DNA of 64,000 nt from assembly GCF_054482525.1 (NCBI RefSeq), contig NZ_CM137006.1. The stretch is one strand, 5' to 3'. Positions 35,782 through 45,752 of the stretch are shown one piece after another. Both the position numbers and the translations under genes were made by a program. Each line of letters opens with the position of its first letter. Within the stretch, counting starts at the first letter, position 1. The notes beneath the pieces were generated by a model. That model was given only the letters and a program-made list of their open reading frames with translations, was not told the origin of the DNA and made no database searches.

Positions 35782-36054
35782 ATGTCTCATACCATCCGTG
35801 ATAAACAGAAACTGAAAGCGCGTGCCAGTAAGATTCAGGGCCAGGTCGTGGCGCTCAAGAAAATGCTCGACGAGCCGCACGAATGCGCTGCAGTTTTACA
35901 ACAGATTGCTGCTATCCGTGGCGCGGTAAACGGTCTGATGCGGGAAGTGATTAAAGGTCATCTGACGGAACACATCGTTCACCAGGGGGATGAGCTAAAA
36001 CGTGAAGAAGATCTGGATGTCGTTCTGAAGGTGCTGGATTCTTATATCAAATAA
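35782..36054 (+). CDS. rcnR: CsoR/RcnR-family Ni/Co-responsive repressor
   Basis: 90 aa ([22 protein letters not shown]..), matching K-12 RcnR. Confidence 0.94.
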
Positions 36055-36091
36055 TTTATTAACGCTATTGTAAAACTGCCGTTTTTCCTCG

Positions 36092-36120
36092 TTTACAACG
36101 GGTGCGCTGGACATTACCAT
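36092..36120 (+). promoter_or_regulatory. putative native thiM promoter, now separated from thiMD and pointing into the island integrase
   Basis: TTTACA-17 bp-TACCAT lies immediately upstream of the left copy of the riboswitch sequence. This is a prediction by eye. Confidence 0.45.
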
Positions 36121-36142
36121 CCTCCTCTGCGATTTATCATCG

Positions 36143-36224
36143 CAACCAAACGACTCGGGGTGCCCTTCTGCGTGAAGGCTGAGAAATACCCGTATCACCT
36201 GATCTGGATAATGCCAGCGTAGGG
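36143..36224 (+). repeat. attL: 82-bp direct repeat, a 5' portion of the TPP (thi-box) aptamer that lacks the 3' strand of the closing helix and the expression platform
   Basis: Identical base for base to 44033-44114. It contains CTGAGA and the other thi-box core sequences. It diverges from the thiM leader after ..GCGTAGGG. Confidence 0.9.
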
Positions 36225-36307
36225 GGCCAAAATAGTCTTGAAAATTATGTGGTTGTATCTCTTTTTGACCATAAATCATGCTGTTAAGGTACAAAAAGGG
36301 GTCGTTT

Positions 36308-37615
36308 ATGAGGTCAAGAACTCTCCCATACACATTTCAGCGAAACGGTAATTACTATCTACAAATCCGGCTTTCGGATGGTCGGATATACAAAAAATCA
36401 CTTTTTACTGACAGTTATCGCGAAGCATCGGCGTTGATGATTGGCCTTACTCCGCACATTCCTTTCGTTAAATCACTCGCTACTCCGTTGCCGCAATTTA
36501 ATAAGTTTGTTTCAAACTTGATCGCTTCGTCACGTAACGTAATGATTCCGTTGCCACTCCCTCAGCAATTGAACAATATTTCTAAAGAAGTTTTGCAGCT
36601 TCAACCACCAGCCAAACCGGAAAAGGTACTAACACTTGCTGATGCGTGGGCTATGTACAAGGAGGAAAGAGGTCGAAATTGGACAAAATCGATCTCAATA
36701 GCAAATGAGCGTTATATGGAGGTATTGCTTGTTGTCTTGGGAAAAGAAACAGACGTAACGGCAATCACCAAACAAGATATTAAGCGAGTAATGGAAACTG
36801 TCGAAAACTTACCAAAGCGTGTAGTGCAACCGTATAGGTCAATGACTATTCAGCAACTAATCGAATGTGATGATGTGCTGCCAGAGGATTTAGTTGGTGC
36901 TGAGGCTGTACATAAGCACCTTAAAATCTACAAATCGTTATTCAAAACATTTCTGACTGAAAACAAAGATATTCTATCTAAGTCTCCGACTGATGGAATA
37001 GTAGCGGCACCATCCAAAGCTAGGTTTGGTGCATACAGTGCAGCAGAAATGAAAAAATTTGTAGGATGGGCACTAAAGCAGCCTGATGGATGGCAGAAGT
37101 GGATCACTTTGTTGTTGGCGTACACAGGAGCCAGAAGAGGTGAGATTGCTAAACTGGAGAAGTCGCAGATCAAATTTGATGAAGATAGCCAGCGGCACTA
37201 TCTTCTGATCGCGGAAAGAAGGCTGGGTAAAACTGAGAATGCTACAAGACAGGTAGTGATTCATCCCAAACTGATTGAGTGGGGGTTTCTGGATTTTGTT
37301 AACCGCCAATGGAAAGAGAAAATCTTTTCGGAAGTCTCAGGTCGAAATATGTCAAAGATAGGTAAAGTTCTTTCAGATGTTCGTGATCAGCTTGATATTC
37401 CTTATCTTGATGATTATGGGCAGCGGCGCTTGGTGCATAGTTTCCGGCATACTATGATTTCTACTTGTTTAGCTGGTTGGGTGAGTAATTTGGCGCATCT
37501 GCAACAGGTGGTAGGTCATGAAAAGAGTGGAGTAGGGATTACCCAGCGTTATCTGCACACATTCCCACTTTCCACCGTTTGTTATGTGATCGATGGTCTT
37601 TGTTGGGAGACTTAG
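36308..37615 (+). CDS. tyrosine recombinase / integrase
   Basis: The ORF in the track starts at 36278. I prefer the ATG at 36308, after an AAAGGGG Shine-Dalgarno. N-terminal arm-binding-like RNGNYYLQIRL, then catalytic-domain motifs ARRGEI, HSFRHT and GHEKSGVGITQRYLH (Tyr). Confidence 0.88.
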   Translation: MRSRTLPYTFQRNGNYYLQIRLSDGRIYKKSLFTDSYREASALMIGLTPHIPFVKSLATPLPQFNKFVSNLIASSRNVMIPLPLPQQLNNISKEVLQLQPPAKPEKVLTLADAWAMYKEERGRNWTKSISIANERYMEVLLVVLGKETDVTAITKQDIKRVMETVENLPKRVVQPYRSMTIQQLIECDDVLPEDLVGAEAVHKHLKIYKSLFKTFLTENKDILSKSPTDGIVAAPSKARFGAYSAAEMKKFVGWALKQPDGWQKWITLLLAYTGARRGEIAKLEKSQIKFDEDSQRHYLLIAERRLGKTENATRQVVIHPKLIEWGFLDFVNRQWKEKIFSEVSGRNMSKIGKVLSDVRDQLDIPYLDDYGQRRLVHSFRHTMISTCLAGWVSNLAHLQQVVGHEKSGVGITQRYLHTFPLSTVCYVIDGLCWET

Positions 37616-37743
37616 TTATTCGTGTATCCTTCTTAGTGTATAACCAGCTAATAATTTGTAGATTTTTATTGTCTGAGATCAAAAATTTTCACAACTAATT
37701 TACAATAATAACTTAAGATGAATTTAGGCTTAGTGAGTCTTCT

Positions 37744-38469
37744 ATGGTTAAAAATTTAGGCAAAAAATACAAGTATGGCGATCAACCGATAAGAGCTATT
37801 ACCATACAGATAATTGCTAATCAGTTTGGTGGGGCTGCAACGGCTAAGCAGGTAGATGATTATCTTAGAAAGCTATTTCCATCTTATAAAGATAATACTT
37901 GGCTCAATTTAATTGCTAATACAGTTAATTGTAAGCGGAGCTACTGGAGTTTCAACAAAACTGCCCGACGAACTGATGATGTAACTCATCGGCATCATAA
38001 GTATGACCGATTGTTCAAGCGTGGAAATATTTTTGAAATCTATCAACCATCTGTGCACGGTATTTGGGAATTATACCAGGATTTAGAAGGGATGTGGCGT
38101 TATCGTCAAGTAAAATCGGTTTTCGAAGAAGCTGTTGAGACGGCTGCAAAATTATCTTCAGTGGAACGAAAGCAAATTTTAGCGACAGAAAGTAAAATCC
38201 CGGAACTAATCGAAGTAACAACACGAGTTTATAAACGAAGCCCATATGTAGTTGCTGAAGTTCTTTTGAGAGCAAATGGAAAATGTCAATATTGTAAGCG
38301 AGATGCTCCTTTTCTAAAGGAAGATGGTACTCCATTTCTAGAAGTTCATCATATTGAGTGGCTTTCAAAGGGGGGGGAGGACTCTGTGGAAAATGCTATT
38401 GCATTATGTCCTAATTGCCATAGACAAGCCCATTATGGCGATCTGACATTACTACCTGTTAATAAATAG
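37744..38469 (+). CDS. HNH nuclease-domain protein with an uncharacterised 170-aa N-terminal domain (McrA-like architecture)
   Basis: C-terminal CQYCKRDAPF..EVHHIEWLSKGGEDSVENAIALCPNCHRQAH is a canonical HNH/zinc-ribbon motif. No adjacent methyltransferase gene. Confidence 0.8.
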   Translation: MVKNLGKKYKYGDQPIRAITIQIIANQFGGAATAKQVDDYLRKLFPSYKDNTWLNLIANTVNCKRSYWSFNKTARRTDDVTHRHHKYDRLFKRGNIFEIYQPSVHGIWELYQDLEGMWRYRQVKSVFEEAVETAAKLSSVERKQILATESKIPELIEVTTRVYKRSPYVVAEVLLRANGKCQYCKRDAPFLKEDGTPFLEVHHIEWLSKGGEDSVENAIALCPNCHRQAHYGDLTLLPVNK

Positions 38470-38546
38470 GCTTGATGAAAGTTCTATTTCTATATTTTTC
38501 AATATACAAATTTCCCCAAAAACGGCGTGAATATCACGCCGATCAA

Positions 38547-38894
38547 TCATACTTCAGAACACATACTCAATGTGTAAACAGCCATCTCCCCATCGGGATT
38601 AGAAGGGCGTAATACAAATATCGGTATACTGCCATTGTCAATGTATGTGGCTGCAACCCCTCCGTCAGGTGTAGCATACATCTTTGCGATGCTTTTTTGA
38701 CCTACAAAATCAAGTCTCCAAGTTTTACCGCCAAGATTTATGGTCATTTTTTTATCTTGTATATCAAAAGTTGAATCTACAGAAACTTTCTGACTTCCCG
38801 AGTCAATATGACCTTCCTGTATTGCTTTACAGGAAAAGGTTGTGGCGTGGCCCATCACTGGAATTAACAAAGCGGCAAATACTAGTTTTTTCAT
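38547..38894 (-). CDS. small secreted protein of unknown function
   Basis: I prefer the start at MKKLVFAALLIPVMGHA (signal peptide), after an AAGGGAGA Shine-Dalgarno. 115 aa with two Cys. The ORF-track start at 38951 is rejected. Confidence 0.7.
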   Translation of the reverse strand: MKKLVFAALLIPVMGHATTFSCKAIQEGHIDSGSQKVSVDSTFDIQDKKMTINLGGKTWRLDFVGQKSIAKMYATPDGGVAATYIDNGSIPIFVLRPSNPDGEMAVYTLSMCSEV

Positions 38895-39004
38895 TTGTCT
38901 CCCTTGGTGTGTCAAATGGATGGTGATGCTAATAATACATGATTGATTCAAAATGTCACGATTAGTGCGTGGTTAATTGGTGCGTCAAATTGCATCTTTG
39001 TGCC

Positions 39005-39469
39005 ATGCGAAAGAATCTGAGATACCTTTTTGGACAACGAGTAAAAGAGTTCCGTATAGCTATTGGCTTAAGCCAAGAGGCCTTTGCAGATCGGTGTGGT
39101 TTTGCACGTAGTTATATGAGTCGAATTGAGCGTGGTTGCTCTAATGCATCTCTTGATGCAATTGAGGTTCTGGCTGACGCTTTGCGTATTGAGCCTTGGC
39201 AGTTACTGGCTTCTGATTCAAGGAAACCTGATGATCAGGAGGTACTTGTTCCTTATGCTGCAGATGGGTCGTGTTTTCATCCAGGATTGGCAAGTACTCG
39301 CGATGGTTCGTTTAGAGTAGGGGAAAAATCAGCCCAGAAACGTTTCAGTTCGTTCAATGAAGCTCTCGAATACCTTCGTGGAATGGAAACCGCGAAGTGG
39401 CGTAGGCCTAATGCTAGTGGTAATTGGGGAATTGTATCTGCGGTTAAATGGGATCGACTGAATCAATAA
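39005..39469 (+). CDS. XRE-family HTH protein fused to an uncharacterised C-terminal domain
   Basis: HTH region LSQEAFADRCGFARSYMSRIERGCSNASLDAIEVLADAL. The 90-aa C-terminal part (..ETAKWRRPNASGNWGIVSAVKWD..) is not recognisable to me. Start chosen at MRKNLRYLFG. Confidence 0.75.
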   Translation: MRKNLRYLFGQRVKEFRIAIGLSQEAFADRCGFARSYMSRIERGCSNASLDAIEVLADALRIEPWQLLASDSRKPDDQEVLVPYAADGSCFHPGLASTRDGSFRVGEKSAQKRFSSFNEALEYLRGMETAKWRRPNASGNWGIVSAVKWDRLNQ

Positions 39470-39635
39470 GATATCAGTAATTTTCGGGCCACTCCACAAG
39501 GCAATAAGTGGCTTAGTGGTGATTATCGAAGGGGAATACAAGCGAGCACCTAGGCACCATTGCAAGAACCGCTCAACGCTGAGATCAGCAAGCCCCGATT
39601 TTTGCCGACCGTCCCTGTCAAATATCAAGGAGGCA

Positions 39636-40187
39636 TTACGCCACCTGCTCTTTCTTGATACGTTGCACCGTCTGCGTGCTGACACTGAAATCTTTTGCTA
39701 CGCTCCGAATTGAGCCACCATTCGCGAGAGCGGCAGCAATTCCCGCTCGATCAATTGCTTTTCCATTACCACGTTTTGCTATACGTCCAGCGGCCTTGGC
39801 TGCGGCGATCCCTTCACGTTGACGCTCAAGCATCATTTCACGTTCCATTTGTGCCACTGCTGCAAGAACTGTGAGCATCATATTCCCTGCGGGAGAGTTC
39901 TTTCCTGTCTTAAAGTCTTCTTTATGGAAATGCACAGACACGCCGCGCTTTGTTAATTGCTCTACAGTTGCCAGAAGGTCGGCTGTATTACGACAAAGGC
40001 GATCAATACTATGGACGTGTAACACGTCACCCTCCCGCACATAGTTCATCATTGCCTCAAACTGTGGGCGCTGAGTGTTCTTGCCTGACGCTTTATCTTC
40101 AAAGACTTTATCAAGAGTTACTCCTGCTAATTGACGGTCTGTGTTTTGTTGCACAGTCGATACCCTAATGTATCCAATATTAGCCAT
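39636..40187 (-). CDS. serine recombinase (resolvase/invertase family)
   Basis: MANIGYIRVSTVQQNTDRQ contains the catalytic Ser. Also VHSIDRLCRN and a C-terminal HTH (SIRSVAKDFSVSTQTVQRI). 183 aa. Confidence 0.9.
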   Translation of the reverse strand: MANIGYIRVSTVQQNTDRQLAGVTLDKVFEDKASGKNTQRPQFEAMMNYVREGDVLHVHSIDRLCRNTADLLATVEQLTKRGVSVHFHKEDFKTGKNSPAGNMMLTVLAAVAQMEREMMLERQREGIAAAKAAGRIAKRGNGKAIDRAGIAAALANGGSIRSVAKDFSVSTQTVQRIKKEQVA

Positions 40188-40214
40188 CTTCTTTTTTCTT
40201 CTGTATTGATTTGT

Positions 40215-40318
40215 GTGTAGTGATTATTGAACGTGTTGATTAGGTGTGTAAAGTACTTTTTTCACTACGAAATTCGAAGTTTTTTAGTGTGGTGATTTAG
40301 CCTGCCTTATCACTACAC
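40215..40318. promoter_or_regulatory. res-like site upstream of the serine recombinase gene
   Basis: Perfect 10-bp inverted repeat GTGTAGTGAT (40215-40224) / ATCACTACAC (40309-40318), with inner related half-sites TCACTAC (40262-40268) and TAGTGTGGTGA (40285-40295). Confidence 0.5.
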
Positions 40319-40572
40319 TTCTTGCATGAGAATCATGTAGTTACATTTTGGTAAAATTAGCAAGCTATTAAATTGTGTGTTTATTTTGAAAAAATAATTT
40401 TTGTTGCATTAAAGAAAACTTGTTCGACAAATAATAGGTTGATTTTTGATCAATAATTTCTGATAGTGCTCTGTAAGCCGCATTACACAAGGCGCAGCGA
40501 AAGTGATGTAAAAGTGAAGAAAGCTAACATTGCACTTTTAAACTACTTTTCATTGAATTTTTTAGTATGGAA

Positions 40573-40643
40573 TTACACAGGAATAAGTTAGGGATATTCT
40601 ATGATTTACACAGGGAATATAGGGGGATTATGGTATTACACAG
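40573..40643 (+). repeat. three direct repeats of about 20 bp with core TTACACAG, spaced 33 and 30 bp
   Basis: TATGGAATTACACAGGAATA, TATGATTTACACAGGGAATA and TATGGTATTACACAGAGTGA. Cores are at 40573, 40606 and 40636. Confidence 0.7.
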
Positions 40644-40673
40644 AGTGAGTGCTATGTGATGATTGGTAGTAAC

Positions 40674-40782
40674 GGTAGGTCACTGTGAACTAGGGGGGTA
40701 GGTCACTGTGAACTAGGGGGGTAGGTCACTGTGAGCTAGGGGGTAGGTCACTGTGAACTAGGGGGTAGGTCACTGTGAACTA
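40674..40782 (+). repeat. five contiguous iterons (GGTAGGTCACTGTGAACTAGGGG, period 23/23/22/22 bp): putative vegetative origin
   Basis: Read directly from the sequence. Copy 3 carries one A-to-G change. The array is immediately followed by an AT-rich tract. Confidence 0.85.
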
Positions 40783-40877
40783 CAATAAGACTATAATAAG
40801 ACTATTAATAAAACTATATTAGATTATTAATTAGATCATAATAATAATATTCTTTATATCTATATATATATGATCTT
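40783..40877. other. AT-rich tract next to the iterons (candidate DNA-unwinding element)
   Basis: Almost pure A/T, with internal AATAAGACTAT x2 and a TATATATATAT run. Confidence 0.5.
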
Positions 40878-41883
40878 TTGCCTTCCGGCGTTAGCTTCAC
40901 TCTCTGGCAAGCAGCCTTACTCCGCTACCTTTCGGGCTACGTTGGCTGGCCCGTTCCGCTCACACCGAAAGCAAAGCGTTACTTTCTTCGTGTAACTTCG
41001 TTGGCGGTAACGCCCACGAAGGAATACTATTGCGCTGTGCGCAGTAAGAGTAATCACCTAACCAATCATCTGATTGCTTACGTGTTAACTCTCTCTAACT
41101 CTTAATTACCCTCCTACATTTAATAACTCTCGTTATTCTCTGTAGTTGTGTAATTACTCGAAGAGAGAGCGGCTAAAGCTCAATTACACTCTGCTTTCCT
41201 CGTGTAATTTCACTAAGCCTCAATACAATTTCACTTCCTACATTCTGTAGTCGTGTAATTGTTTTCGGTGGAAAAGCCAGAGGCGACACCGAAAGAGAAT
41301 TCTGATCTTATTAATCTTATCTATCTTAGTTATCTTACTTACTTTATCTACTTTATTATTAATAATAGCTTTATAAGCTCTCTGTGTAGCTCTCTGACGC
41401 AAGAAACAGAGTTCAGGAAGGGAATCACCTTAGAAAAGTGTTCTTTGCGTCATAATGTGTTTTATGAAGGATTCAGAGGTGTTTCATAACAGAGATGTAT
41501 AGAGGATACTTTAGGTAATTAAAAATAAGGGGTCTAAATGCTTCTCTAACAGCATTAAGCAGGGTAGAGAATGGAAACCGCTTTGCCTACATATATAAAC
41601 TCACTACAGGGCTTTACAGAGCGTTTTATAAAGTGACTCTCTGTTTTATATCTACCATCACCTTTTCATATACCTAACAAATACAAAATAAGCCCCTTAA
41701 ATAAGCCTCTGGCGAGCTAAACAGCCATTACATAAGAGAATGTATTGCTTTTATCAAAACCTCGTTAGAACGCGTTTTAGAGCGTTTTAGCGGATAATGA
41801 AGAATAGCACTACACAGGAGAGCACGAATTGCTAAGAAAAAATGTAACTACATGAAAAAGATCAGATTTTTTGTGAAAAGGTA

Positions 41884-41912
41884 TTGACAAACGTCTCTTT
41901 CTGTGCAATAAT
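41884..41912 (+). promoter_or_regulatory. predicted sigma70 promoter upstream of the rep-like operon
   Basis: TTGACA (41884-41889), 17 bp, then AATAAT (41907-41912). Confidence 0.5.
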
Positions 41913-41965
41913 AGGTATTAGAGGGACAGGAATAGATTCTTATCCTCTAAATAATTAAACCAATG

Positions 41966-42010
41966 CACCGCACTTTGAAGCCCAAGGCTTGTAAGGTGTG
42001 TTTTTTCTTT
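41966..42010 (+). terminator. intrinsic-terminator-like hairpin between the promoter and the first ORF (attenuator, or the 3' end of a roughly 90-nt sRNA)
   Basis: Long imperfect stem 41966-41982/41986-42000 around a CAA loop, followed by TTTTTTCTTTT. It lies 29 bp upstream of the ATG at 42039. Confidence 0.55.
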
Positions 42011-42038
42011 TAACCAAATAGAATAAGGAGGCTAATTA

Positions 42039-42227
42039 ATGAAATATTTTACTCCACAGGATGTAGTAGAAGCCTGGAAACGTGGTGAGATCAACCGCTT
42101 TAAAGTAAGGATGTATAGAAACACCGCTCGCCGTTGTGGTTATCCAGAGCGTGAAAAATGTTTTGACGATGCACTAAAAATTATTGATGAACTGCGTAAA
42201 GCTGAGAAAGAAGCAGAGAAAAAATAA
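42039..42227 (+). CDS. 62-aa basic/acidic small protein, unknown function
   Basis: Strong AAGGAGG Shine-Dalgarno 8 nt upstream. It is the first ORF of a tightly packed 4-gene cluster. Confidence 0.65.
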   Translation: MKYFTPQDVVEAWKRGEINRFKVRMYRNTARRCGYPEREKCFDDALKIIDELRKAEKEAEKK

Positions 42228-42249
42228 TAGACAAGAGAAGGAGAAAACT

Positions 42250-42417
42250 ATGAGCGAAACTAAGAAACCAATTCCGCGCACTTACCTACACGTTGACCCT
42301 GAAATCTTCAAGGTTTTATTTGCTGAAGCCAAGAAAAGGCAAATTATGGTCAGTGATTTGATGTTAGAAATCATTACTGAAGCAGCAGAGAACATCAAAC
42401 AAAAAAAGGGTAAGTGA
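42250..42417 (+). CDS. 55-aa ribbon-helix-helix (CopG/Arc-like) protein candidate
   Basis: Start at MSETKKPIPRTYLHV after AAGGAGAA. The beta-strand, helix, helix pattern (RTYLHVDPEIFKVLFAEAKKRQIMVSDLMLEII) fits an RHH fold. The ORF-track start at 42184 is rejected. Confidence 0.6.
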   Translation: MSETKKPIPRTYLHVDPEIFKVLFAEAKKRQIMVSDLMLEIITEAAENIKQKKGK

Positions 42418-42468
42418 TCCTCATTCACTTTAGTAGCGCATTAAGCGTGATTTATAAGGAGATTTTTA

Positions 42469-43158
42469 ATGATTAATCAACTAACTTTTACAAAACACTA
42501 TGACACGTTTGATAATGTATCAAAGATTTATTCTGATAAATTCCCTCAAGGAAAAGATTTAGATCTATTACATATTGTGCTTTATTTTCGATTCCTTAGT
42601 TATCAGGAAAACAACCTTAATTGTTATGAAAGTCACGAAACATTAGCTAAGATTTTTAAGTCTTCAGCGTCAACAATTAAACGTAAGATAAACGATCTTA
42701 AAGAGATGGGATTATTAGAAACATCCCCACATCCTGATCCGTATATTTCATCTTTGATTTACAATGCTCTCCCTCTCACAGATGCACATATTACTCCCCC
42801 AGGAGAATCATCACTCTCTGATCTTTCTGAGGCAGAAGAAGCACAGGAACAACCTAAAGGCCATAAACAGCCTTCTTTTGATGTTCTTGATGATTGGGAT
42901 ACGCCTTTACCCTGGGAGACGGAAGAAACACCTGTTTCATCAAGTGAAAAAGTAGCTAATGATAATGAGGAGGATGTGTTAGAGAATTTTGCCTCTCTTA
43001 TCATCCAGGAGAAACACACAAGAACAGGAGGAGCATCATTTATTGAGTTTGCAAATTCACTAGCTTGTAGATACGGGCTAAAACGACCAAATGGTATTGA
43101 GGCATATTTTTCTAAGAATTACCCAAATATATACGATGACTTTGATATTCCATTTTAA
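42469..43158 (+). CDS. putative replication initiator (winged-helix N-terminal domain, acidic C-terminal half)
   Basis: HETLAKIFKSSASTIKRKINDLKEMGLLE is an HTH/wHTH like those in DnaD/Rep-type initiators. AAGGAG Shine-Dalgarno. It is encoded near the iteron array. The function is inferred. Confidence 0.55.
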   Translation: MINQLTFTKHYDTFDNVSKIYSDKFPQGKDLDLLHIVLYFRFLSYQENNLNCYESHETLAKIFKSSASTIKRKINDLKEMGLLETSPHPDPYISSLIYNALPLTDAHITPPGESSLSDLSEAEEAQEQPKGHKQPSFDVLDDWDTPLPWETEETPVSSSEKVANDNEEDVLENFASLIIQEKHTRTGGASFIEFANSLACRYGLKRPNGIEAYFSKNYPNIYDDFDIPF

Positions 43159-43169
43159 TAAGGAGGGTT

Positions 43170-43415
43170 ATGATTCAATATTTAGTAAAAAATCAAGTAG
43201 ACAGAATTCAGTGTAATGACACAGGAAAACGCATCTACGAGACACTTGTTTACCTCTATAAAGGAAAGCCAACACCGCTAAAATATAGCGATGTGTTACA
43301 TCGAGCAGGTTGCTCTGAGTCAGGTTTAAAATTCTGGCTGAAACAGCTATCAAATTTCGGTGTTATTGAAATGAAAGAGCTGTCTTTTTCTACATTCAAC
43401 CTCAAGAAGTTATAG
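43170..43415 (+). CDS. 81-aa winged-helix-like small DNA-binding protein candidate
   Basis: AAGGAGGG Shine-Dalgarno. The YSDVLHRAGCSESGLKFWLKQLSNFGVIE segment looks like a wHTH. Confidence 0.55.
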   Translation: MIQYLVKNQVDRIQCNDTGKRIYETLVYLYKGKPTPLKYSDVLHRAGCSESGLKFWLKQLSNFGVIEMKELSFSTFNLKKL

Positions 43416-43483
43416 AAAATAGAATTCATCTATTCCACGCTCTAATTCTATTTCTCTGTTTAATATAAAAGGAAAACATTATT

Positions 43484-43561
43484 ATGGTAATAGCTATGTG
43501 GTGGTTGTTGTTTTTTATGCTCGTAGAAACATATGCAAGTAAGTCTGGAAAACAAAAATAA
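43484..43561 (+). CDS. candidate 25-aa hydrophobic peptide (MVIAMWWLLFFMLVETYASKSGKQK)
   Basis: Hand-translated. AAGGA lies 10 nt upstream. It has a hydrophobic N-terminal part and a basic tail, like type I toxins or small membrane peptides. There is no other support. Confidence 0.25.
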   Translation: MVIAMWWLLFFMLVETYASKSGKQK

Positions 43562-43580
43562 TATATTGATGATTTGTTTT

Positions 43581-43820
43581 TTATAACTTCGTGGTGTCAA
43601 GTCCAGCAGCTTTGAGTCGCTCGGTAAGATTTCTCATTTTGCTGAACTCTGTACCAAAGCTGGCTTTAAGTCCTACACCTTCACAAAACTCTTTTGCCGT
43701 AACCTTTTTCAGATGGTCAGCATATTTGATCATCTGGAGGTGCATTTCCATCGTTTGGCTATTTCGTGGTGCGCTGCTAATGGCTTGCTTAATGTTCTCG
43801 TAGATCTGGGTTTCTGTCAT
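43581..43820 (-). CDS. 79-aa protein of unknown function at the right end of the island
   Basis: Clean ORF, MTETQIYENIKQAISSAPRNSQ... It is the last gene before attR. Confidence 0.6.
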   Translation of the reverse strand: MTETQIYENIKQAISSAPRNSQTMEMHLQMIKYADHLKKVTAKEFCEGVGLKASFGTEFSKMRNLTERLKAAGLDTTKL

Positions 43821-44032
43821 TTTTTATCTCACCTATCAAATTTAGATAAATAATATAAATTAGCAAATTAAGATAATCAATAGTTTTTATCATCTGAATG
43901 ATAGATGTTAAATGTTTCTTTTTCATTTCTGATATGGGGTACAAAATGGGGTACACAGAGAAGAAGCAATTAATGGAGGCGAGCTTGCATCTGCAAGCCA
44001 CTTCCCCTAAGCTGGCACAAAATATAGAGATT

Positions 44033-44166
44033 CAACCAAACGACTCGGGGTGCCCTTCTGCGTGAAGGCTGAGAAATACCCGTATCACCTGATCTGGATA
44101 ATGCCAGCGTAGGGAAGTCACGGACCACCAGGTCATTGCTTCTTCACGTTATGGCAGGAGCAAACT
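44033..44166 (+). promoter_or_regulatory. complete TPP (thi-box) riboswitch of thiM; its first 82 nt form the attR repeat
   Basis: CGACTCGGGGTGCCCTTCTGCGTGAAGGCTGAGAAATACCCGTATCACCTGATCTGGATAATGCCAGCGTAGGGAAGTC matches the well-studied E. coli thiM aptamer. It is followed by the native expression platform and a GGAG Shine-Dalgarno. Confidence 0.92.
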
Positions 44167-44955
44167 ATGCAAGTCGACCTGCTGAGTTCCGCGCAATCTG
44201 CGCACGCGTTACACCTTTTTCACCAACATTCCCCTCTTGTGCACTGCATGACCAACGATGTGGTGCAAACCTTTACTGCCAATACCTTGCTGGCGCTCGG
44301 TGCATCGCCAGCGATGGTTATCGAAACCGAAGAGGCCAGTCAGTTTGCGGCTATCGCCAGTGCGTTGCTGATTAACGTTGGCACGCTGACGCAGCCACGC
44401 GCACAGGCGATGCGTGCCGCCGTTGAACAGGCAAAACGCTCTCAAACACCCTGGATGCTTGATCCAGTAGCGGTGGGTGCACTCGATTATCGCCGCCGTT
44501 TTTGTCTGGAACTTCTGTCTCATAAGCCAACCGCCATACGTGGTAATGCTTCGGAAATCATGGCATTAGCTGGCGTTGCTAATGGTGGACGGGGAGTGGA
44601 TACCACTGACGCCGCAGCTAACGCGATACCCGCTGCACAAACACTGGCACGGGAAACTGGCGCAATCGTCGTGGTCACTGGCGAGATGGATTATGTTACC
44701 GATGGACATCGTATCATTGGTATTCACGGTGGCGATCCGTTAATGACCAAAGTGGTAGGAACTGGCTGTGCATTATCGGCGGTTGTCGCTGCCTGTTGTG
44801 CGTTACCAGGCGATATGCTGGAAAATGTCGCATCTGCCTGTCACTGGATGAAACAAGCCGGAGAACGCGCAGTCGCCAGAAGCGAGGGGCCAGGCAGTTT
44901 TGTTCCACATTTCCTTGATGCGCTCTGGCAATTGACGCAGGAGGTGCAGGCATGA
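44167..44955 (+). CDS. thiM: hydroxyethylthiazole kinase
   Basis: 262 aa ([32 protein letters not shown]..), matching K-12 ThiM. The stop overlaps the thiD start. Confidence 0.95.
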
Positions 44956-45752
44956 AACGAATTAACGCTCTGACGATTGCCGGTACTGATCCGAGTGGTG
45001 GTGCGGGGATTCAGGCCGATCTTAAAACCTTCTCGGCACTTGGCGCTTATGGTTGCTCAGTGATTACTGCACTGGTGGCGCAAAATACCCGTGGCGTACA
45101 GTCGGTGTATCGCATTGAGCCTGATTTTGTCGCCGCCCAGCTCGATTCGGTGTTCAGCGATGTGCGAATCGACACCACTAAAATCGGTATGTTGGCGGAA
45201 ACCGATATTGTTGAAGCGGTGGCAGAACGGTTGCAACGTTATCAGATCCAAAACGTGGTACTCGACACCGTTATGCTGGCAAAAAGCGGCGACCCGCTGC
45301 TTTCACCTTCGGCGGTTGCTACGCTGCGCAGTCGATTATTGCCACAGGTTTCATTAATAACGCCAAACTTGCCCGAAGCTGCTGCCTTGCTCGACGCGCC
45401 ACACGCGCGCACCGAACAGGAAATGCTGGAACAAGGGCGATCGCTGTTGGCGATGGGCTGTGGCGCAGTGCTAATGAAAGGTGGTCATCTGGATGATGAA
45501 CAAAGCCCGGACTGGCTGTTTACCCGCGAGGGTGAACAACGGTTTACGGCACCGCGCATTATGACCAAAAACACCCACGGCACTGGTTGTACACTCTCTG
45601 CGGCGTTGGCTGCACTACGCCCGCGCCATACAAACTGGGCAGACACCGTCCAGGAGGCAAAAAGCTGGCTTTCATCGGCGTTAGCCCAGGCCGACACGCT
45701 GGAAGTTGGTCACGGTATTGGTCCGGTTCACCACTTCCACGCCTGGTGGTGA
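44952..45752 (+). CDS. thiD: hydroxymethylpyrimidine / phosphomethylpyrimidine kinase
   Basis: 266 aa ([27 protein letters not shown]..), matching K-12 ThiD. Confidence 0.95.

Follow-up and report, generated by a model that had tools for sequence, protein, structure and literature searches.

The GC-rich, hairpin-dense block at positions 40878-41060 of the window, i.e. of the 64,000-nucleotide stretch of contig NZ_CM137006.1 (assembly GCF_054482525.1) that was analysed, is the 5' part of a conserved, covarying array of hairpins of about 430 nt beside an iteron origin. The window belongs to an Escherichia coli chromosome and shows 100% identity with strain SCU-102, and the block lies inside a gene-free stretch of 1.85 kb (40188-42038) in a 7.9-kb genomic island. 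The array, in the following called the module, has a conserved secondary structure with compensatory base changes, is non-coding, is always found at the same position and in the same orientation beside the iterons and the adjoining AT-rich tract, and is absent from Rfam and from the plasmids and phages searched. A literature search on phage satellites and structured RNA, DUF6945, single-strand initiation (ssi) sites and the core sequence also found no description of the element, hence, it matches nothing described in Rfam, the sequence collections or the literature searched. We favour the reading that the module is a single-stranded DNA (ssDNA) priming or helicase-loading signal, at a probability of roughly 0.45.

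A hairpin array with compensatory base changes

The structure became apparent from the comparison of divergent module versions, which were collected as partial matches in E. coli genomes (L019, L020, L072 from BL21(DE3), L073 and L077), by a scan of gut metagenomes with a 20-mer of the core, and from IMG/VR loci. Fifteen variants were parsed into arms and 14 of them were kept as a gapless, hand-curated alignment. Standard pairs make up 94.2% of its 519 cells, compared with 75.6 +/- 1.3% after shuffling (reached in 0 of 500 shuffles) and 33-43% with slid partners. Both sides are altered in 22 of the 42 pairs and in 92 cells, while slid partners gave only 3-7 such pairs. These compensatory changes indicate that the module acts as a folded single strand. 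Independently of any alignment, nine of ten distinct junction sequences, folded singly with DNA parameters, adopt the same three-way junction (ensemble frequencies 0.30-0.83, z -2.4 to -5.4). The initial annotation, made from the letters of the window, had named a lack of conservation or covariation among homologues as the result that would speak against a functional structure; the comparison came out the opposite way.

All versions share one architecture (Table 1). Its 5' part comprises the iterons, the AT tract, in some versions a hairpin P0, then P1 with the mini-hairpin inside it, and the core of about 65 nt closed by P2, while the 3' part consists of the junction P4/P4a/P4b, an optional P5, P6, P7, a C-rich linker and further hairpins up to the motif GCCAGRGG, which is found in all types. 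The module contains at least ten hairpins, starts at most about 70 nt from the AT-rich tract in every type and has a fixed orientation relative to the rep operon. Among copies of the window type, 40878-41300 is nearly invariant except for single-base indels.

The pairs differ in how they vary between the types. Of the five pairs of P1, only one varies (C-G or U-G), and in L077 a deletion of the P1 linker merges P1 and P1a into one bulged hairpin. P2 is changed at three positions on both sides to TGACC/GGTCA in an alternative core, which BL21, REL606, E. coli C, L073 and L077 share; in all, 86 genomes have this core. The six inner pairs of P4 each show two to four Watson-Crick pair types with zero unpaired cells, and P4a and P4b are 100% paired with three and four compensatory positions, respectively. 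Twelve of the 14 aligned variants have the same P6 sequence (the loop reads TAT in L034, and the hairpin is missing from L049); P6 is doubled in the L014 type and has the loop CGTGT in L077. The core end (CCGCTCAC...) is an alternative pairing partner of P6, and for several types the predictions include a long-range helix of this core end with GCGCTGTGCGCGG, which has an invariant 3' side and disrupted outer pairs in the window, L019 and L020 types; the 3' side is invariant in every type. P7 and P9 were obtained by RNAalifold on an uncurated MAFFT alignment of 13 variants and show some covariation: the inner stem of P7 occurs as CATC/GATG, CAAC/GTTG or CAATC/GATTG, and P9 combines four invariant outer pairs with inner pairs of two to three pair types.

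Compared with this picture, the initial annotation described the region only in part. The switch to GC-rich composition after the AT-rich tract holds (GC of about 0.22 rising to 0.55; 0.22-0.25 at 40750-40899 vs 0.46-0.55 at 40850-41049), but the structured region extends well past the proposed length of about 180 bp, to ~41300. All sequence motifs of the three stems described at the time are present upon sequence check, CTTTCGG at 40929-40935 with CCGAAAG at 40965-40971, CTTCGTTGGCG-GTAA-CGCCCACGAAG at 40996-41021, and ATTGCGC-TGT-GCGCAGT at 41029-41045, the last one base away from where it had been placed. However, only this third stem is a conserved one, namely P6. The CTTTCGG/CCGAAAG stem is restricted to the window type, since CCGAAAG is replaced by CGACGCAGC and other sequences elsewhere, and the GTAA hairpin is an alternative register of the conserved three-way junction (P4/P4b). 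The GTAA-hairpin register is preferred by the window sequence itself, but a window-type variant that has one additional A, and is more common, adopts the junction fold. Compared with 200 dinucleotide shuffles, the fold of 40870-41110 has z values of -4.6 (plus strand) and -4.0 (minus strand) as RNA and of -3.6 and -4.4 as DNA.

The loci L014 (4690-5240) and L015 carry a different block of about 560 bp without the core in place of 40832-41692. Hairpins are again numerous in this block, GCGCTGTGCGC is present twice, and TTGCAC boxes and a long-range inverted repeat of 17 nt are also found; the block may represent an analogous module.

Table 1. Features of the module, the origin and the island (positions of the window)
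Feature	Position	Strand	Description
TPP riboswitch, duplicated at the island ends	36146-36241 and 44036-44132		Rfam scan
Island genes before the gene-free stretch			tyrosine integrase, HNH protein, small lipoprotein-like ORF, XRE regulator, serine recombinase
Iterons	40671-40787		five direct repeats of 22-23 bp (GGTAGGTCACTGTGAACTAGGGG), repeat family D1
AT-rich tract	40788-40877		GC ~0.22, with GATC sites; from composition
P1	40878-40910	+	stem TTGCC (40878-82) / GGCAA (40906-10); curated alignment
Mini-hairpin inside P1	40887-40896	+	GGC-GTTA-GCT, contains GCGTTAGC at 40888-95
Core	40898-40962	+	~65 nt, nearly invariant across types, includes P2
P2	40912-16 / 40944-48	+	CAGCC / GGCTG
Three-way junction	40985-41022	+	outer stem P4 with P4a and P4b
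P4, outer stem	40985-92 / 41015-22	+	TCTTCGTG / CACGAAGG
P4a	40994-41002	+	AAC-TTC-GTT
P4b	41003-41014	+	GGCG-GTAA-CGCC
P6	41032-41042	+	GCGC-TGT-GCGC; window-type extension ATTGCGC/GCGCAGT (41029-45)
P7	41055-41084	+	imperfect hairpin, inner stem CAATC-ATCT-GATTG; followed by C-rich, G-poor linker
P9 domain	41171-41219	+	GGCT...AGCC enclosing AATTACAC / GTGTAATT; RNAalifold
Last conserved hairpin region	41259-41300	+	TTTCGGTG ... GCCAGAGG ... CACCGAAA; approximate 3' end of the module
Promoter-like site of the operon orf62-orf55-rep	41884-41912	+	TTGACA-17-AATAAT, 11 of 12 matches
Rep	42469-43158	+	229-aa winged-helix initiator-like protein; PHROG/Pfam
Island genes after the gene-free stretch			two tiny ORFs, 229-aa winged-helix protein (Rep), 81-aa ORF, HTH_73 protein
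Abbreviations: TPP, thiamine pyrophosphate; ORF, open reading frame; aa, amino acids.

The origin setting and the island

The gene-free stretch is ordered as TTACAC boxes, five iterons, the AT-rich tract and then the GC-rich block. The iterons are the presumed binding sites of the island-encoded Rep, and the AT-rich tract is the presumed DNA-unwinding element. Rep matches PHROG families of replication-initiation and O-like proteins (best E 1.9e-9) and scores 24.4 bits against Pfam HTH_36, just under the cut-off of 25. In loci whose Rep is only 41-53% identical, the iteron stretch cannot be aligned, while its flanks still align and the non-coding sequence 40817-42020 is still 92-94% identical. 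The iterons also differ between the module types, and AT-richness at the position following them is kept in all types. Tandem repeats, an AT tract, a Rep-like gene and a repeat divergence that tracks Rep are thus all present, as in iteron-type theta origins, and the setting that the initial annotation had assumed for the block, beside an AT-rich origin, is supported. No relaxase, mobilisation or primase gene was found among the nine island proteins scanned with Pfam and PHROG, a set that left out the integrase. The DnaA box TTATNCACA was not found with up to one mismatch in 38466-42139, hence, the region has no hairpin stem with a DnaA box as in ABC-type ssi (A site).

The promoter-like site of the rep operon, which has the equivalent TTGACA-18-TATTAT in L020, is situated downstream of the module, which is therefore not part of the operon leader. 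Between this strong promoter-like site and the first small ORF (41884-42038), a hairpin followed by a T-run is found at ~41965-42010, a place that is taken by a clear intrinsic terminator in the L020 and BL21 types. This suggests that the rep operon is under attenuation or antitermination control.

Several other repeats were observed around the module. The TTACAC box occurs 11 times within 1.6 kb compared with 0.8 expected, but in the window type only; sites are found at 40480-40644, 40990, 41148, 41183, 41202 and 41253, with four direct copies to the left of the iterons and mostly inverted ones to the right. At the 3' end of the module, at least six phased 9-bp repeats ATCTTAnnn are located in a second AT-rich tract (41305-41360), and their number differs among copies. 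Motifs of the type AGAGCGnTTTWA are repeated at 41617-41640 and 41775-41800, between module and operon promoter; their position is conserved across types, and they may be operator sites. Sequences resembling hix/gix half-sites, TTGATCAAAAATCAACC and TTATCAAAACCTCG, are located at 40437-40462 and ~41748-41770, with the gene of a serine invertase-like recombinase (39636-40187) next to them. Homology between islands often begins at ~40391 or 40442, and the hix/gix-like sequences may mark sites of site-specific cargo exchange. Short, mostly unannotated ORFs are present on the plus strand just upstream of the iterons in L072 (8400-8740), L019 (4560-4770) and L020 (4440-4760), including one hydrophobic peptide and one helix-turn-helix (HTH) remnant ending ...AVSRATVYRWVKG.

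The island is inserted in the TPP riboswitch ahead of thiM. Because the riboswitch is found at both island ends, the element integrates within the thiM leader and rebuilds the riboswitch. In BL21, REL606 and E. coli C, the thiM site is occupied by an IS1-truncated relative (L072). Related islands use thiM, tRNA-Thr (thrW) or tRNA-Gly as integration sites and carry variable cargo including TIR and AIPR proteins, and some encode capsid-like, tape-measure-like and tail-fibre-like proteins. Collectively, these islands look like an uncharacterised satellite-like family. One thrW-integrated relative from Shiga toxin-producing E. coli (L002, 12538-16446) has genes for capsid-like, tape-measure-like and tail-fibre or baseplate-like proteins; its layout from integrase to Rep differs from that of P4, of phage-inducible chromosomal islands (PICI) and of capsid-forming PICI (cfPICI), and it may represent a new satellite family.

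The block with its flanks is present in 440 of 5,426 complete E. coli genomes, where it is almost never annotated, and all of its 483 copies are chromosomal (483/483). The entire module family is carried by ~10% of the complete E. coli genomes, including BL21(DE3), REL606 and E. coli C. Distant blastn searches found no similarity to the block among 72,556 plasmids; the only match covered 43 nt outside the block and came from a mislabelled chromosome. Likewise, blastn revealed no counterpart of the block among 50,697 phage records. A contig scan with Rep returned a single locus only, and a viral-contig scan with a 24-mer of the core returned no contigs beyond those already found.

Single-stranded DNA signal or RNA

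The initial annotation had offered three functions for the block, an ssDNA initiation site, an origin of transfer (oriT) or a regulatory RNA. The first fits best, the regulatory RNA stays in consideration, and oriT found no support. According to the favoured reading, the module would be an ssDNA priming or helicase-loading signal that resists SSB (the protein that binds single-stranded DNA) and serves the iteron origin of a small integrative satellite-like element. Rep would bind the five iterons and melt the adjoining AT-rich tract. When unwinding spreads rightwards, the exposed strand from 40878 to ~41300 could fold into short, mostly Watson-Crick hairpins (P1, P2, the junction, P6 and P7-P11), which would withstand coating by SSB and offer a fixed position at which a factor for priming or helicase loading could act. 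The nearly invariant 65-nt core is the candidate site for this factor, which might be the host DnaG, the PriA primosome or a helper-encoded primase. The plus strand would be the lagging-strand template of the rightward fork, and a primer made there would be extended leftwards across the origin as leading strand. In this model, both which factor acts and in which direction synthesis runs are inferred.

The ssDNA reading is favoured because the module always abuts the AT tract, has no conserved promoter or terminator, shows few wobble pairs, and has helices that are better recovered with DNA parameters. Moreover, a near-invariant core and a window-type module that is 92-94% identical despite a Rep identity of 41-53% are expected for a site that is read by a shared host or helper factor. 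The supported helices have mean pair probabilities of 0.61 (plus strand) and 0.59 (minus strand) with DNA parameters, but only 0.38 and 0.46 with RNA parameters, and their recovery in minimum free energy (MFE) folds decreases correspondingly from 0.70 to 0.40. The junction is the MFE fold in only five of ten sequences with RNA parameters compared with nine of ten with DNA parameters. By these thermodynamic models, the folded molecule is more likely DNA than RNA. The plus strand is weakly favoured by wobble asymmetry, since G-U exceeds A-C by 11:3 in the curated helices and by 42:10 downstream, although 24 of these 42 come from two invariant columns. The loops of the module are GTAA, GAGA, GTGA and TGAAA. 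It is known that GNNA/GAA loops closed by C-G form extraordinarily stable DNA mini-hairpins at the priming sites of G4, St-1, alpha3 and ssiA (PMC13037366).

Several points weigh against the ssDNA signal. With ~430 nt and at least ten hairpins, the module has several times the size of the ssi signals characterised so far (40-140 nt). Local alignment to the complementary-strand origins of G4 and alpha3 gave scores of 16-23 compared with a shuffle mean of ~17.7 +/- 2.3; since a BLAST search with the G4 oric against plasmids retrieves no G-site, sequence cannot settle the membership. The CTG context after P1a is not universal, being ATG in L045 and L063 and deleted in L077, and a G4-like motif of hairpin followed by CTG was dropped for this reason. 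The lack of a DnaA box and of a primase gene in the scanned proteins also counts here, and it would be strange for a general priming signal of the host to be missing, as the module is, from 72,556 plasmids and 50,697 phage records. Folding as DNA fails to separate the two strands (0.61 vs 0.59), and the DNA-versus-RNA argument as such rests on thermodynamic models. Finally, the structural alignment was curated by hand: MAFFT with RNAalifold on the junction alone gave no pairs, with the window type misaligned, and over the whole first half it missed the junction.

The main alternative, less likely in our view but a serious rival, is a large structured non-coding RNA of ~0.4-0.5 kb or longer, or the structured 5' part of one, whose plus-strand transcription would start in or upstream of the iterons and the AT tract. 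Its role could lie in controlling or priming replication, in regulating the rep operon downstream of it, or in interactions with a helper phage. Among classic features of RNA, it has extensive covariation, the three-way junction and loops of the GNRA type (GTAA, GAGA, GTGA), the wobble asymmetry points towards the plus strand, and size and helix number suit a large RNA better than a known ssi. Furthermore, the C-rich, G-poor linkers hold CCTCC motifs resembling an anti-Shine-Dalgarno sequence, a weak promoter-like site (TTTACA-18-TATGGT) is situated on the plus strand just upstream of the iterons at 40605-40634, and the terminator-like hairpin in the rep operon leader is a possible target of an RNA regulator. 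On the other hand, neither a sigma-70-like promoter nor an intrinsic terminator brackets the module in the window and L020, and promoter-like matches do not exceed the level expected from shuffled sequences. The scan of 36000-45000 with Rfam 15 on both strands (E up to 1) recovered only the two TPP riboswitches and a chance tmRNA match elsewhere, and ARAGORN gave no match. G-U pairs account for only 11 of 519 cells (2%), and the RNA parameters recover the conserved helices poorly. The plus strand is also C-rich and G-poor (GC skew -0.08 to -0.49), which is unusual for a structured RNA. In L019 and L077, the hairpin potential reaches into the AT tract, so that the start site would fall inside or before the iterons. 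Should the module nevertheless be transcribed, which we regard as possible but less likely, it would be a previously undescribed RNA with a three-way junction and a 65-nt invariant core, specific to a new satellite-like or defence island family of E. coli.

It is improbable that the hairpins are instead a double-stranded array of protein-binding palindromes or a pac/cos packaging signal, with the covariation reflecting paired half-sites. Related islands encode a major capsid-like protein, some of the overrepresented TTACAC boxes form the arms of P4 and P9, and GCGCTGTGCGC is a near-invariant palindrome. However, the P4 arms are found nowhere else in seven other types, and the explanation of the P4 covariation as mere repetition of protein boxes was rejected, because only the window type shows this repetition. 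Half-sites would not predict seven helices, nested or adjacent and with loops of 3-6 nt, that vary independently and show coaxial nesting (the junction, the merger of P1 and P1a in L077). The absence of any similarity to phage records also indicates that the module does not mimic the cos or pac site of a helper.

Still more improbable is an oriT, or a leading-region ssDNA signal, for mobilisation by a helper conjugative plasmid, with hairpins that would be used for nicking or for priming of the complementary strand in the recipient. In favour of it are the conserved, strand-specific structure, a near-invariant core that could be a nic region, and the lack of transfer genes of their own in the islands. 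Against this stand the missing similarity of the block to any of the plasmids searched, the lack of a linked relaxase or mobilisation gene and the exclusively chromosomal location of all copies, and the capsid-like and tail-like genes of related islands point to phage-mediated rather than conjugative transfer.

That the block encodes a small protein is hardly credible: open frames exist, namely a 75-aa ORF starting with TTG (40878-41105), a 41-aa ORF starting with ATG (40870-40995) and a 46-aa ORF on the minus strand, but copies with 96-99% identity differ by 1-nt indels at ~40941, 40951, 40998, 41026, 41046 and 41070, which shift the frame of both the TTG and the ATG ORF, so that no reading frame is conserved among the homologues. 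The open stretch through the core ranges from 14 to 100 codons across types with differing sequence beyond the core, the block ORFs have no Pfam or PHROG match, and no Shine-Dalgarno sequence was seen in front of them. The initial annotation had thus correctly called the block non-coding, while its statement that the TTG ORF is the only one applies at lengths of at least 60 aa.

Comparison with known systems and significance

The oriV of plasmid RSF1010 (IncQ) has an iteron/AT-rich layout as well, and it resembles the window in that hairpin ssi signals are placed beside iterons and AT-rich tract within an iteron-type origin. In plasmid R1, the G-site lies downstream of oriR, near the Rep-opened origin; this site and ssiA/ssiB of RSF1010 are understood to give the leading strand that is extended across the origin. 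The RSF1010 oriV contains two 40-nt ssi repeats where its primase initiates (PMC8567376), and ssiA includes a stable GAA-loop mini-hairpin (PMC13037366). However, IncQ has a pair of inverted repeats of 40 nt each, located on opposite strands and used by the plasmid's own primase RepB', whereas the module is a single oriented array of ~430 nt without sequence similarity to them. Neither a cognate primase, among the scanned proteins, nor paired signals on opposite strands were found.

The G4-type ssi (G4, alpha3 and St-1 as well as the R1 G-site) share with the module clusters of SSB-resistant hairpins with GNNA or GAA loops, which are predicted in our case, and a position within a few hundred bases of a Rep-opened origin. 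The octamer GCGTTAGC of the St-1 and alpha3 mini-hairpins is also present in the window, but in the window type only. In contrast to these sites, the module is 3-4 times longer, aligns to the G4 and alpha3 origins at the shuffle mean, and does not conserve the CTG start context after the first hairpin. Primosome assembly sites (pas) of the phiX174 type act as ssDNA and form a family with little sequence consensus. These PriA-dependent sites, such as those of ColE1 and pBR322, resemble the module in being hairpin clusters that are strand-specific and lie near an origin on the lagging-strand template. They differ from it by their size of ~70-100 nt and by the lack of a defining sequence, while the 65-nt invariant core of the module implies sequence-specific recognition.

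Other likenesses are more limited. The single-strand origins (sso) of rolling-circle plasmids and the minus-strand origin of Ff phages are orientation-specific, structured non-coding elements of 150-300 nt that act as ssDNA and start complementary-strand synthesis; they work with HUH nicking initiators and RNA polymerase primers, whereas here a winged-helix, iteron-binding initiator and no nick-site features are found. Among RNAs, ColE1 RNA II has a comparable size (~550 nt), many stem-loops and a position adjoining the origin, and the replication operon of satellite P4 is under RNA-mediated premature termination by CI RNA, in which regard the terminator-like hairpin in the island's operon leader is similar. 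In contrast to both, the module has no promoter found and no Rfam match, is located upstream of the operon promoter, and belongs to an iteron/Rep replication system.

The present analysis shows that about one in ten complete E. coli genomes harbours this unannotated module, among them such workhorse strains as BL21(DE3), REL606 and E. coli C. It sits in small islands with defence-like cargo (HNH, TIR and AIPR proteins), some of them with capsid-like and tail-like genes, and it is the most conserved part of these islands, in view of the identity of 92-94% compared with 41-53% for the initiator. Should the module indeed serve in priming or loading as ssDNA, its large size and elaborate structure would be unusual for such a signal, and it would provide a handle on how such satellites, with neither a primase nor a helicase loader of their own, initiate replication. 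If it acts as RNA, it would represent a new class of large structured RNAs.

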